Shown here: piece by piece, positions 2,830 to 62,823 of the stretch
Position numbering within the stretch: position 1 is the first letter of the stretch
Layout: each line of letters starts with the position of its first letter
Assembly (NCBI GenBank): GCA_043803815.1
Contig: JAZDJR010000029.1
Span: 7,979 to 71,978, forward strand
Reading direction: 5' to 3'
Source of the DNA: Candidatus Micrarchaeota archaeon
GTDB lineage: Archaea > Iainarchaeota > Iainarchaeia > Iainarchaeales > JAGVWC01
DNA length: 64,000 bases
Translations under genes and position numbers: made by a program
The notes under the pieces: model-generated
What the model saw: only the letters and a program-made list of their open reading frames with translations
What the model was told of the DNA's origin: nothing
The model's database searches: none

Positions 2830-3147
2830 AGCAGTAGTGGAAGGTTTGCTATCGCTTGGCCGAAAGGTTTCAAGTGAGGAAAGTCCGCCCACTTCAATTC
2901 AAAACCACTTCCGAAAGGATGTCCGCGAGAACAGAAACGGCACGGTTTCGACCGTGCGCACCGATATCGGGTACCTTCGGTACCCGTGGTGTGCATGACA
3001 AAACCGATGAAACGGCTTGCGGTTAAAATCCCGGTCACGCCGGGAGGAAGTGCAACACCCAAAGCCGGTGGCTTAGACGGATGCAAACAATCCCGTTTTT
3101 TACAAAAAACGGGACGAACAGAAGGCGGCTTACTCTCCACTGCTGCT
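2830..3147 (+). ncRNA. rnpB: RNase P RNA (archaeal)
   Basis: Universal motifs GAGGAAAGTCC and AACAGAAGGCGGCTTA; terminal helix AGCAGTAGTGGA/TCCACTGCTGCT. Confidence 0.93.
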
Positions 3148-11776: not shown

Positions 11777-11905
11777 GGACCTGTAGCCTAGCCTGGATAG
11801 GGCACCTGCCTTCTAAGGCTTTTTCTTCAAAAGAAAAACCCTGGAAAAAGAACAGGGAACGTCAAGGCGAGCAGGGGGTCGTGGGTTCAAATCCCACCAG
11901 GTCCG
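11777..11905 (+). tRNA. tRNA-Arg(TCT) with a 54-nt intron at 37/38 (11816-11869)
   Basis: Acceptor GGACCTG/CAGGTCC, anticodon stem CCTGC/GCAGG, T arm GTGGG-TTCAAAT-CCCAC; relaxed BHB. Confidence 0.92.
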
Positions 11906-21383: not shown

Positions 21384-21424
21384 TGTTTACAATTTATAAA
21401 CATAATGTTTACAAAAAGTAAACA
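21384..21424. promoter_or_regulatory. Two tandem palindromic operators overlapping the TATA box of the MNT-HEPN operon
   Basis: TGTTTACAATTTATAAACA (21384-21402) and TGTTTACAAAAAGTAAACA (21406-21424). Confidence 0.7.
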
Positions 21425-21441
21425 TTGCAGGCGGGCAGATT
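21424..21441 (-). repeat. att site (duplicated tRNA-Leu 3' end)
   Basis: Exact match to 51206-51223. Confidence 0.93.
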
Positions 21442-49940: not shown

Positions 49941-51140
49941 TCAAACCACCTCTTTTTTCAGTTGCGTGGCTTGGGTAATGGCTTCTTGGATGATGTTGGG
50001 GTTGGTTTTAGCCATTTCAAGCAATTTCATTACTGCGACCATGGCTTCTTGGTCTTTTTGGCGCGTCATTTCCACTGAATTGATAGCCTGGGGGGTCAAC
50101 GGTAGCCAGCATTGTTTACAGTATTGGCTGTTTACGTCGTTGGGTGTTTTGCAGCGGGGACAGTTTTGTTGTAGTAAAATGATTTCTTTTTTTTCGGGTT
50201 TTTTTAAACCGTTTAGCTCCAAAATTGCGTTGTCGACTTGTTTTCCGGACAGGTGGACGTAGCGTGAGGCCATGTCGCTTCCTTGGGTCCAGCCGAAGTA
50301 TTCTTTCATTTGGGCTTCAGTCAGGAATTGCGCCATGTAGGTTGCGCGTGAGTGTCGGAAGTGGTGGGGGTTGACTGGTTTTTTTATTCCCGCGCGTTTG
50401 GCGGCGCCGCGGATTACTTTGATGATGTAGGCGTAGACGACTTGCTGGGTTTTTTTTCGGGTAAGCGTTACCCACAAGGGCGCGTTGGGGTCGTGGTTTT
50501 GGGGGTGCTCATTTATCCATTCCAATAAATAGGGTGCGCTGGATACTAGTCGGATGCGGCGCATTCCGGTTTTGCCGTCGACCATTACTTGACACCCGAA
50601 TTCGTCGAATTGCACGTTTTTGAGTTGTAGGCCTCCAATCTCTCCTATTCGGGCCCCGGATTCCCAGATGCACGAGATAAGTGCTTTGTCGCGTTTGGTG
50701 TGTGTGTTTTGGAGCAGGGTTTTTACTTCTTCTTGGTTTAATAGGTCGTCCGGCAGTCGTTTGTATTTGGATTTGGAACCGCTTTTTATCCAGGCCACGC
50801 ATTCGGGGTAGGTTCCTTTGTTGAACCACTTGTAAAACACTTTTAGGGTGGCTCGAAAAGTGGCAATGGATTCTTCGGCATAGTCGCTGGTTTTCATCCA
50901 GACCAAGAAGGTTTCCACGTCTTTGGCGGTAATCGTGTCAAAGGGTTTGGGGATTTTTTGGCTGAAAAGGCGCAAACAGGATGCTATGCGTAGGATTCGG
51001 GGGGTTGAAATGCCGTTTACGGTTTCAAAGTTGTGGAAATCCGTCATCCATTGCTTGTTTTGGCTTGGAATGTCGGCTTTTTCAATTCGTTCCTGTTCCT
51101 TGACTAGGTAGTGGTCGTAGTCGTGTAGGTATTTTCTCAT
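49941..51140 (-). CDS. Tyrosine recombinase/integrase with C-terminal zinc ribbon
   Basis: ESGARIGE, GKTG, HHFRHSRAT, GW, RYVH; CPRC...CKQC; adjacent to att/tRNA. Confidence 0.95.
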   Translation of the reverse strand: MRKYLHDYDHYLVKEQERIEKADIPSQNKQWMTDFHNFETVNGISTPRILRIASCLRLFSQKIPKPFDTITAKDVETFLVWMKTSDYAEESIATFRATLKVFYKWFNKGTYPECVAWIKSGSKSKYKRLPDDLLNQEEVKTLLQNTHTKRDKALISCIWESGARIGEIGGLQLKNVQFDEFGCQVMVDGKTGMRRIRLVSSAPYLLEWINEHPQNHDPNAPLWVTLTRKKTQQVVYAYIIKVIRGAAKRAGIKKPVNPHHFRHSRATYMAQFLTEAQMKEYFGWTQGSDMASRYVHLSGKQVDNAILELNGLKKPEKKEIILLQQNCPRCKTPNDVNSQYCKQCWLPLTPQAINSVEMTRQKDQEAMVAVMKLLEMAKTNPNIIQEAITQATQLKKEVV

Positions 51141-51207
51141 CAAATCACGTCTCCTTTTACCCAACCGAAAACCAATTAAAAGAGACGGATTCAAACAATT
51201 TGGTAAT

Positions 51208-51311
51208 TGCAGGCGGGCAGATTCGAACTGCCGAAAGCCACTAAGGCACAAGCCCATTGACCGTTGATACGGGCCTCAAGCTTGCGAAATTGACCGCTAT
51301 TCGACGCCTGC
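51208..51311 (-). tRNA. tRNA-Leu(GAG) with a 19-nt intron (51255-51273); integration target
   Basis: GCAGGCG/CGCCTGC acceptor, CAAGC/GCTTG stem, long variable arm, canonical BHB (TTGA/TCAA, CCGT/ACGG). Confidence 0.93.
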
Positions 51312-51416
51312 ACTATTGTAAAAGGGTTCAATAGTCCTTTTAAAATCTGTTCTCCCTGCTTGCCGATTCTTGCCGAATTTAATAGTACTGCTTGCGCACT
51401 AAAAAAAATAATGATA

Positions 51417-54270: not shown

Positions 54271-54398
54271 GACTGCAAAAAACACCGCTAATTTTTTGTT
54301 CTTTCAAAGAATGACTGCTCCCCGTTCTAAATAGGGAAATATCCGAAGCTTGACCTGGAAAATACCTTAAAAAACCGATTCAACCCAATTCTTGCATT

Positions 54399-54451
54399 GC
54401 GGAGATGGCTAAACCTCAGCTTTTTGCTTTGGGCAAAAACCTGGGAAAAAG
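54399..54451 (+). repeat. Duplicated tRNA-Ser 5' fragment (17 nt) followed by a hairpin repeat copy
   Basis: GCGGAGATGGCTAAACC (16/17 match to the tRNA 5' end) + CAGCTTTTTGCTTTGGGCAAAAACCTGGGAAAAA. Confidence 0.85.
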
Positions 54452-54470
54452 CAGCTCTGAAAAATTTGAT

Positions 54471-54609
54471 GCGGAGATGGCTGAACCTGGTTAAGGCGCA
54501 CGCCTGGAAACTCAGCTTTTTTGCTTTCAGCAAAAAACCTGGGAAAAAATTGTTTAGCCCGTGAGCGTGTGGGCGAAAGCCCTTGTGGGTTCAAATCCCA
54601 CTCTCCGCG
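54471..54609 (+). tRNA. tRNA-Ser(GGA) with a 54-nt intron (54510-54563)
   Basis: GCGGAGA/TCTCCGC acceptor, CACGC/GCGTG stem, variable arm GGGC-GAAA-GCCC, T arm GTGGG-TTCAAAT-CCCAC. Confidence 0.92.
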
Positions 54610-61893: not shown

Positions 61894-62148
61894 TCACCTT
61901 TTTTCTGCTTCTCGTTCCATCTTGATGCATTTTACGGGGCATTCGACCGCGCAAATCCCGCAGCCCTTGCAATAATCCAAATCAATAACCGGAATTTCTT
62001 TTGGGGTTCCCATGATTCCTTCGGGGCAAAAATTTTGGCAGATTCCGCATTTAATGCATTCTTTAGCATCCACTTTAGGCTTGTCAACACTCCATTTTCC
62101 GGTCTTGTTGACAACGGTTGTTCCCGGCTTTGCAATCGCGAATTTCAT
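61894..62148 (-). CDS. porD: Pyruvate/2-oxoacid:ferredoxin oxidoreductase delta subunit
   Basis: KTGKW, CIKCGICQNFCP, YCKGCGICAVECP. Confidence 0.94.
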   Translation of the reverse strand: MKFAIAKPGTTVVNKTGKWSVDKPKVDAKECIKCGICQNFCPEGIMGTPKEIPVIDLDYCKGCGICAVECPVKCIKMEREAEKR

Positions 62149-62690
62149 TTTTTTTCACCGCTTGTTTTTTCAAAGCATTCCTGAACGGCTAAAATGTTTT
62201 GGGACGCGATTGTTGAGGGAAAGCGGCTTGAAATCGCTTTTTTAATGCTCTCGATTTTTACGATTCCGGTTATTTTGCACAACGCCCCGAGCATTACGGT
62301 GTTGGTAATCGGTTTTTTTAGATATTTAACCGCGATTTGAGTTCCATCCACGATGAAAACAAAATTGCTCTGCAGATTCAATTCTTTTTTAGGCTGATTT
62401 GAGTTCACAATCAGTTTTCCGGTTTTTTTCAGCCCAGCTTCGACTGAAACTTCCTGCAAAACCGACGGCTCGGCAACTACTATGATATCCGGCTCGTTTA
62501 TTTCCTCATGAATCGCAATCGGCTTGGAATCGATTCGGCAATAACTGGTAACCGGCGGCCCGCGTTTTTCCGAGCCGAAAAAAGGCATGGCCTGGCTAAA
62601 TTTTCCTTCCAAAGCCGCGGCTTCGGCCAAAAGTTCGGCAGCGGTAACGATTCCCTGTCCCGCCCGTCCATGAAAACGAATTTCAATCAT
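62145..62690 (-). CDS. porG: Pyruvate/2-oxoacid:ferredoxin oxidoreductase gamma subunit
   Basis: MIEIRFHGRAGQG, FGSEKRG, NTVMLGA. Confidence 0.94.
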   Translation of the reverse strand: MIEIRFHGRAGQGIVTAAELLAEAAALEGKFSQAMPFFGSEKRGPPVTSYCRIDSKPIAIHEEINEPDIIVVAEPSVLQEVSVEAGLKKTGKLIVNSNQPKKELNLQSNFVFIVDGTQIAVKYLKKPITNTVMLGALCKITGIVKIESIKKAISSRFPSTIASQNILAVQECFEKTSGEKK

Positions 62691-62711
62691 TGCATTTCCT
62701 CTTGGAACTTT

Positions 62712-62797
62712 CTTTTTCTCGAGCTTTTTTGCACGACGCAAAAAAGGCTGCTGGAAGCATTTTTTTTCCCAGGCTTTTTTCCGCAGAAAAAAGGCTG
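62712..62797 (-). repeat. Two tandem copies of the T-run/A-run hairpin repeat
   Basis: CAGCCTTTTTTCTGCGGAAAAAAGCCTGGGAAAAAA and CAGCCTTTTTTGCGTCGTGCAAAAAAGCTCGAGAAAAAG on the minus strand. Confidence 0.85.
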
Positions 62798-62823
62798 CGG
62801 CCATGAAAACGAATTTCTAGCAT
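62797..62823 (-). pseudogene. Duplicated 5' fragment of porG (MLEIRFHGR)
   Basis: ATGCTAGAAATTCGTTTTCATGGCCGC vs ATGATTGAAATTCGTTTTCATGGACGG, 23/27 identical. Confidence 0.85.

Follow-up and report, generated by a model that had tools for sequence, protein, structure and literature searches.

REP/BIME elements with RAYT, and the end hairpins of IS200/IS605 elements, are short, extragenic imperfect palindromes with conserved unpaired bases. REP/BIME elements often lie at the 3' ends of genes, sometimes in pairs or arrays, and reach hundreds of copies. In Thermoproteales, introns of different tRNA genes reportedly have related sequences, which Fujishima and colleagues are said to have called tRNA "intron transposition" in 2010. 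Larger elements are inserted by recombination at gene ends; the att duplications of archaeal plasmids and viruses (SSV-type, pNOB8-type) show the order truncated tRNA end, insert, complete tRNA gene. One study, on tRNA-Thr fragments in Caldiarchaeum, proposes that tRNA fragments arise and introns are gained through this arrangement, and adds that mismatches between att copies can be inherited from different lineages, one copy coming from another lineage's gene (PMC3293823). The closing part of a 2026 preprint on archaeal tRNA introns leaves their arrival as an open question.

The window examined here (the whole stretch of DNA analysed, 64,000 nt) belongs to a genome of 1.08 Mb in 36 contigs and contains a hairpin module, which we name R1, common to tRNA introns and to non-intronic sites. 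Like REP/BIME elements, R1 is a short imperfect palindrome with a conserved 5' tetranucleotide, but unlike them it has no linked Y1 gene, is present in about 26 copies, is bordered by long repeats and occurs also in tRNA introns. It differs from IS200/IS605-derived palindromes in that its ends do not resemble those of the IS elements of the genome, which are GC-rich hairpins. As in the Thermoproteales case, a sequence is common to different tRNA introns, pointing to spread between genes, but it is a module and not the whole intron that is shared, the intron position is canonical in this genome, and R1 is also common outside introns, with repeats of gene ends. The layout of these repeats is that of att duplications, except that the insert of about 40–120 nt encodes nothing, that a fixed hairpin edge forms the junction, and that the targets are dozens of different sites, protein-gene starts among them. 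R1 further shares with MITEs, as characterized in PMC11602168, its small size, its non-coding, palindromic, multi-copy and intergenic nature and its patchy occurrence among relatives, but its repeats are variable (9–99 nt, not 2–10 bp) and no parent insertion sequence was seen. A literature search, with supplementary files outside its reach, found no description of the motif, and Rfam searches at E ≤ 1 on 16 R1 loci returned tRNA and chance matches only, with no family for R1. The module looks like an undescribed mini-insertion with a built-in mismatch.

ARAGORN in default mode finds no tRNA in the window, because introns are disallowed in that mode. With introns allowed, and with the Rfam tRNA family, the tRNA-Arg and tRNA-Ser genes of table 1 are recovered, both interrupted one base 3' of the anticodon; because A residues are repeated at the intron boundaries, these are ambiguous by 1–2 nt. 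The original prediction had described 54-nt hairpin introns in these two genes, non-intronic hairpins near 54417–54451 and 62712–62797, and a tRNA-Leu intron of 19 nt without the motif. The coordinates and sequences of the introns are as it described, a covariance model (CM) recovers the non-intronic copies, the pair near porG lying on the minus strand, and ARAGORN agrees on the tRNA-Leu intron. The truncated tRNA-Ser copy abuts the R1 upstream of the complete gene and is itself preceded by a TTAAAAAA box at 54367–54374. At porG, which encodes the gamma-subunit of pyruvate oxidoreductase, the first about 25–26 nt of the gene are repeated upstream of the hairpins; this truncated start abuts the R1 5' edge and has a native-looking TATA region upstream of it. 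Elsewhere in the window, an archaeal RNase P RNA was matched at 2833–3144, with 86 bits, barely over the gathering score of the family; together with the small size of the genome it suggests an archaeon of DPANN type.

Table 1. R1 copies and neighbouring genes in the 64,000-nt window
Feature	Position	Strand	Evidence and remarks
tRNA-Arg(TCT) gene, 54-nt intron 11816–11869	11777..11905	+	Rfam tRNA 54.3 bits; intron-aware ARAGORN
R1 in tRNA-Arg intron	11815..11852	+	CM 49 bits; 5' edge is first intron base
tRNA-Ser(GGA) gene, 54-nt intron ~54510–54563	54471..54609	+	Rfam tRNA 42 bits; ARAGORN
R1 in tRNA-Ser intron	54512..54551	+	CM 53.5 bits; CAGC from intron base 4
Truncated second copy of tRNA-Ser (first 18 nt)	54398..54416	+	1 mismatch; direct-repeat score 16
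Non-intronic R1 between tRNA-Ser 5' fragment and complete gene	54416..54453	+	CM 51.7 bits
R1 upstream of porG, subfamily with extra C-G pair	62760..62798	-	CM 53 bits
Second R1 upstream of porG, in tandem, more diverged	62710..62751	-	CM 30.7 bits
Truncated, diverged copy of porG start (ATGCTAGAAATTCGTTTTCATGGCC)	62799..62823	-	Direct-repeat score 17
porG-like gene	62145..62690	-	ORF; orthologues at 42–74% identity
tRNA-Leu(GAG), 19-nt intron without R1 (comparison case)	51207..51312	-	ARAGORN

Read 5' to 3', R1 consists of N-C-R-G, a C.C mismatch, a T4-8/A4-8 stem that encloses a variable inner stem-loop, C-Y-G, and then GG and an A-run. It measures 35–45 nt, to which a second hairpin of 25–40 nt is added in some lineages; a subfamily with an additional C-G pair, placed after the mismatch and ahead of the T-run, still keeps the mismatch. 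In an alignment of 15 clear copies from the genome of the window, checked by hand, 98.6% of the helix cells are paired and 5 of the 10 pairs show compensatory changes, values that none of 500 shuffles reached and that no slid register came near. The CM was built from this alignment and then run on loci of this genome and seven relatives, giving 88 matches, 86 of them distinct. The alignment of these 86 copies is model-fitted and so leans towards the model; in it the mismatch is C/C in 85 copies, the two bases that follow the stem are almost always G (82 and 83 copies), and the pairs flanking the mismatch covary (CG 72/AU 12, AU 61/GC 16 and UA 52/CG 33). At the 5' edge, C-R-G-C, the C at the mismatch position is found in 86/86 copies and the preceding G in 85/86. 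The conservation of the C.C mismatch, first proposed from a handful of copies, has thus held in a larger set, in which the adjoining stem pairs covary.

Chance similarity between low-complexity T/A runs has to be considered. Hairpins of the form T5...A5 are indeed very common, a simple and unspecific scan for them giving 1026 matches over both strands of the genome. The degenerate core pattern of R1 (GCTTTTT, a gap of 3–30, AAAAACCYKGGRAAAA) matches three times in the window, as against not even one match in any of 100 dinucleotide-preserving shuffles; CM E-values in the genome search reach 7e-11; and compensatory changes surround an invariant mismatch. Homopolymer content thus fails to explain R1, and the shuffles and the covariation refute a chance origin, to which we give practically no weight.

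Searching the whole genome with the CM yielded 46 matches at E ≤ 1 and 26 at E < 0.01, so that the five copies noticed originally are all real but belong to a far larger family. Five of the 26 lie in tRNA introns, those of tRNA-Arg-TCT, Ser-GGA, Leu-TAA, Glu-TTC and a Ser(TGA)-like gene, the last in antisense; the intron of tRNA-Glu-CTC holds a sixth intronic R1, with a large internal insertion and a weak match (E = 0.115). Nine further copies are within 120 nt of tRNA genes and one more abuts the 3' end of a tRNA-Ala, which brings to 15 of 26 the copies in or adjoining tRNA genes. Under the 120-nt rule, which scores all of these except the tRNA-Ala case, 14 of the 26 fall inside the 1.09% of the genome made up of tRNA genes and their 120-nt flanks (binomial P about 3e-21). 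The remaining copies are found at the starts of protein genes or, once, at a gene 3' end. Other metagenome-assembled genomes (MAGs) show the same preference, 33 of 119 R1 instances being in or near the 59 tRNAs that ARAGORN finds within 710 kb.

Within introns, R1 occupies a defined place relative to the splice sites. Sense copies have CAGC at intron base 1–4 in 8 of 10 distinct introns (one of the eight being a loose composite match), and in all 6 introns with an antisense copy the GCTG end lies 2–10 nt ahead of the 3' splice site. Of the bulge-helix-bulge (BHB) motif, with its two 3-nt bulges around a 4-bp helix, a reading by hand gives 3 of 4 central pairs in both window introns; the intron-side helix of such a relaxed motif would use the R1 5' edge. 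The bases just past the 5' splice site, GGC in Arg, CUCAGC in Ser and CAGC plus U6 in Leu-TAA, can, again by hand reading, pair with a segment that immediately precedes the anticodon-loop-pairing part of the intron; in Leu-TAA the partner of CAGC plus U6 is a perfect AAAAAAGCUG. Minimum-free-energy folds of the whole pre-tRNAs show no cloverleaf for the window introns. On sequence grounds, the 5' strand of R1 may have two alternative partners, and the C.C mismatch would weaken the module's own closing stem.

Runs of 5–8 T lie on the sense strand inside introns of presumably essential tRNA genes (in the window at 11820–11824 and 54517–54522). Such runs are terminator-like for archaeal RNA polymerase, and read-through would therefore have to occur there. 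We rejected the idea of a split tRNA, with a terminator and an internal promoter, because in the 54-nt introns the A-run is only 14–20 nt from exon 2; a promoter role of the GGAAAAA tail was rejected because its spacing to gene starts is inconsistent.

Orthologous genes in relatives, denoted below by working numbers, differ widely in what their introns contain. That of tRNA-Arg(TCT) has a 54-nt intron with a diverged R1 in G002, introns of 96 and 216 nt with other T/A-rich hairpins in G007 and G004, introns of 17 and 14 nt without a hairpin in G018 and G015, and no intron in G014, G009 and G017. In the sister genus (G003), tRNA-Ser(GGA) has at the same site a 115-nt intron with R1 in antisense at its 3' end, and no upstream tRNA fragment. 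In view of this variation at both genes, intron content turns over at a stable site, which fits a "landing pad or safe haven". The original prediction, that a mobile hairpin either uses tRNA introns as safe havens or creates them, thus fits, in its first half, the tRNA-Ser(GGA) site, occupied in sense here and in antisense in the sister genus. The comparison with relatives did bring out short or absent introns in some of them; the second half stays unproven, since tRNA-Arg(TCT) orthologues have hairpin-less introns of 14–17 nt or none, and a founding of introns by R1 is not demonstrated by them. Outside introns, all four relatives examined have a TATA-like box ahead of porG, with neither R1 nor a duplication there.

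The usual order at non-intronic copies is a truncated copy of a gene end, R1, a spacer and the complete gene. The truncated copies are tRNA 5' or 3' ends or protein-gene starts, 9–99 nt long, and they abut the CAGC edge of R1. Beyond the window, the same layout occurs in this genome at tRNA-Trp, tRNA-Pro(GGG) and tRNA-His, with reverse-complemented 3' ends of tRNA-Pro and tRNA-Arg, and at the starts of an E2 lipoyl protein, an adenylate-kinase-like gene, a PIN gene and an overlapping gene pair. Direct repeats with a score of at least 10 flank 12 of the 26 R1 copies, compared with control rates of 4.5% (650 mismatched flank pairs) and 4.1% (2000 random sites); in this genome none was found at intronic R1 or at copies directly 3' of a same-strand tRNA. 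Among 100 instances from other MAGs, 36 have a repeat score of at least 12 (control 1.6%) and 23 a score of at least 20 (control 0.13%); the median distance is 5 nt from the end of the upstream repeat to the CAGC edge and 44 nt from the A-run to the start of the downstream repeat. An uncontrolled count of 44 further copies from relatives gave 15 with a score of at least 12, about eight of them edge-adjacent. The 99-nt repeat spans the entire 3' portion of a tRNA-Leu, T-loop intron included, and arrays of repeat-R1-spacer units occur. The inserts, about 40–120 nt long, have no ORF, integrase or cargo, and a gene-end direct repeat is present on both of their sides. The tRNA promoters of this genome have TTTAAAA-type boxes at about −30 to −40. 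For tRNA-Ser and tRNA-Pro(GGG) this box is upstream of the truncated copy, and transcription of the pre-tRNA therefore probably passes through the insert.

How the repeats relate to the genes bears on their origin. Their similarity starts at the gene boundary or 0–16 nt from it and extends much further into the gene. The spacer between R1 and the gene is locus-specific and, where one is needed, has its own ribosome-binding site, unlike that of the truncated copy; in cases read by hand, the coding starts of the two copies match and their ribosome-binding regions differ. An unfiltered automatic count placed 22 of 41 differences between repeat copies at third codon positions and found 16 of 35 codon changes synonymous; it includes a few tRNA-derived repeats misread as ORFs and misses some clear hand-read cases. 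The lean to third positions is a modest, suggestive signal: P is 0.006 when equal use of positions is the null model, but 0.17 when free decay is confined to the dead copy. Because of their length, their extent from the gene boundary, the locus-specific spacer and this lean, the repeats resemble duplications of diverged gene ends of the att type more closely than target duplications made by a transposase. Repeats that are both short and perfect exist as well (11 nt in G011); these would suit a true target duplication, and both processes may occur.

The CM detects R1 in 16 of the 41 genomes of the order, among them all four from the family of the window, and not in the other 25, many of which are fairly complete. 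An exact 25-base core matched 101 stretches in a collection of species-representative genomes; the 80 titles listed among them are all archaeal MAGs, mostly labelled as DPANN, for the most part as Iainarchaeum, Woesearchaeota, Micrarchaeota, Undinarchaeota and Nanoarchaeota, while some are labelled Methanosarcinales (label as given). The inner stem-loop is often identical among the copies of one genome and different between genomes, and near-identical copies are found within G011 and within other MAGs. Thus the proposal of a dispersed, structured repeat strongly tied to tRNA introns agrees with the insertion-like footprints, the arrays and the patchy distribution.

Several of these genomes show further arrangements. 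A tandem array in G011 (L017, G011:C4:9100-9800) has at least three identical R1 copies with an identical 32-nt spacer between them; part of it is N-masked, and it is flanked by a repeat of roughly 23 nt, which contains a gene start on the other strand. In one Nanoarchaeia-labelled MAG, four contigs (L068, L123, L124 and L126) end about 100 nt past an identical R1, which there belongs to a longer repeat, with flanks conserved on both sides, that breaks the assembly. A second family of T/A hairpins, perfectly palindromic, is seen in G002 and G003 (L024, L027, L028, L034 and L035); it has the form ...GCCAGCCTTTTT-loop-AAAAAGGCTG, often with TTTTCGCC in front, and is placed directly at tRNA 5' ends and inside introns.

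We searched this genome for four enzyme families, Y1_Tnp, RVT_1, Cas1 and phage-integrase. Neither RVT_1 (reverse transcriptase) nor Cas1 was found in the genome, which is 85.6% complete, and ideas of retro-insertion or of a casposase-like process are weakened thereby. Two tyrosine recombinases are present, as in most genomes. There is one complete gene for a Y1 transposase of the IS200/IS605 type and a fragment of another. The Y1_Tnp match (C21:1431-1790) falls in a gene of 164 aa with an HxH motif (L138, G000:C21:1362-1856), and the fragment sits at a contig end (C8).

An analogy with HUH nucleases had been drawn at the outset, and R1 could on that basis be a hairpin of the REP or IS200/IS605 type, whose mismatch a Y1 HUH transposase recognizes while processing it as single-stranded DNA. 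Like such hairpins, R1 is imperfect, has unpaired bases that are conserved and keeps a constant 4-nt 5' edge, and the complete Y1 gene sits on the same 4.8-kb contig as two R1 copies. The search for a linked nuclease did not bear the analogy out: the sole full Y1 gene is bracketed by GC-rich hairpins unlike R1, the nearest copies of which are 2.2 kb away, and Y1_Tnp, although present in 11 of the 41 genomes of the order, occurs in only 4 of the 16 that are R1-positive and was not found in the R1-rich G002 (14 copies), G003 (18), G011 (11) and G024 (9), which are 83–91% complete. Flanking repeats are also frequent at R1, and IS200/IS605 elements are not known to make any. We consider this origin very improbable. 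A classical MITE, moved by a DDE-type transposase encoded elsewhere, would account for the repeats as long, decaying target-site duplications; the hairpin arms can serve as terminal inverted repeats, some of the flanking repeats are short and perfect, and several genomes contain near-identical copies. Yet the repeats vary over 9–99 nt where a MITE would have fixed, short target-site duplications, typically of 2–10 bp (PMC11602168), the downstream repeat begins tens of nucleotides after the module with locus-specific sequence in between, similarity follows gene boundaries with differences leaning to third codon positions, and no autonomous partner with R1 ends was seen among the four enzyme families searched. 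This explanation, too, is unlikely.

The main rival is a selected cellular role, R1 being a terminator, a 3'-end-forming or RNA-stabilising hairpin, or a protein-binding site near tRNA and operon genes, with the neighbouring duplications as by-products of replication or repair errors induced by the hairpin. A T5-8 run lies 1–2 nt past the discriminator of tRNA-His, of two tRNA-Ala and of tRNA-Pro(TGG), and the copies placed directly 3' of same-strand tRNAs, which are repeat-free, could simply be terminators; between operon genes of G002, R1 is followed by a ribosome-binding site and ATG. That the mismatch (85/86), the GG and the A-run are near-invariant, with an exact core common, among the listed matches, to MAGs labelled as several DPANN phyla, also fits a selected function and counts against an insertion. 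On the other side stand the presence of R1 inside introns in both orientations, where a terminator in an essential tRNA would be harmful, its absence from the searches of 25 of 41 genomes of the order, the tandem arrays and near-identical copies within genomes, and the gene-end repeats that abut one fixed edge far above controls. A selected role as the whole explanation is therefore doubtful in our view, and it could coexist with mobility.

The reading that we favour, and hold to be somewhat more probable than its negation, is that R1 is a non-autonomous insertion module, spread by recombination and persisting in spliced introns. It draws on the family structure, the tRNA bias, the flanking repeats, gain and loss, the position in introns and the diverged gene ends. 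R1 would spread in this way among small-genome archaea, with the CAGC edge at the hairpin base as its fixed end. In introns this edge lies 0–3 nt from the 5' splice site (sense) or 2–10 nt from the 3' splice site (antisense), where CAGC and the U-run could pair with the 3' part of the intron and form an intron-side helix beside the BHB motif; splicing would then remove R1 from the tRNA, so that the insertion does no damage. At non-intronic sites it is again this edge that abuts a truncated second copy of the neighbouring gene's end, and these second copies would arise by homology-anchored recombination, Campbell-type or integrase-like, at conserved sequence, and not from staggered transposase cuts. 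Homology-anchored, att-like recombination with the hairpin edge as fixed junction is suggested by the anatomy of the loci alone. Under the insertion-module reading, tRNA genes would be the commonest sites because they are the best-conserved anchors, and the C.C mismatch may either destabilize the closing stem, to the benefit of the splice helix, or serve as a feature that a protein recognizes.

A more specific reading, which taken as a whole is possible but rather less than probable, makes R1 the fixed end of a self-propagating mini-cassette composed of the hairpin, the native spacer and the start of the next gene. Such a cassette might pop out of tandem arrays or be copied from the hairpin edge, pass between DPANN lineages and re-enter by a single crossover in conserved gene ends, so that a transposase of its own would be unneeded and tRNA genes would be the main landing sites. 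In an intron, its CAGC/U-run edge would provide the splice helix, and introns would be expanded, reshuffled and maybe founded anew.

R1 is a concrete, sequence-defined module common to introns of different tRNAs and situated exactly at the splice junction. It turns over between sister genera, and in many DPANN lineages tRNA ends and gene starts bear its insertion-type footprints. It may help explain the growth and change of archaeal tRNA introns, and it is relevant to the dynamics of introns, to recombination among very small symbiotic archaea and to the attraction of insertions to tRNA genes. The covariance model, a conserved mismatch that can be mutated, and predicted filled and empty sites offer handles for such work. 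For annotators, the truncated gene starts and tRNA fragments of these genomes are a warning, as they are systematic and not assembly noise.

ARAGORN also called two extra intron-bearing "tRNA-Trp" genes (G000:C15:7184-7347 and G000:C9:189-285); the C15 call, absent among the 25 Rfam tRNA matches listed, is probably false. Lastly, the tRNA-Leu(GAG) gene of the window is adjoined on the same strand by a tyrosine-recombinase gene of the phage-integrase family (50247–50741), and an exact 18-nt copy of its 3' end lies at 21424–21441, 29.8 kb away; the ensemble looks like a classical integrated element with att repeats.
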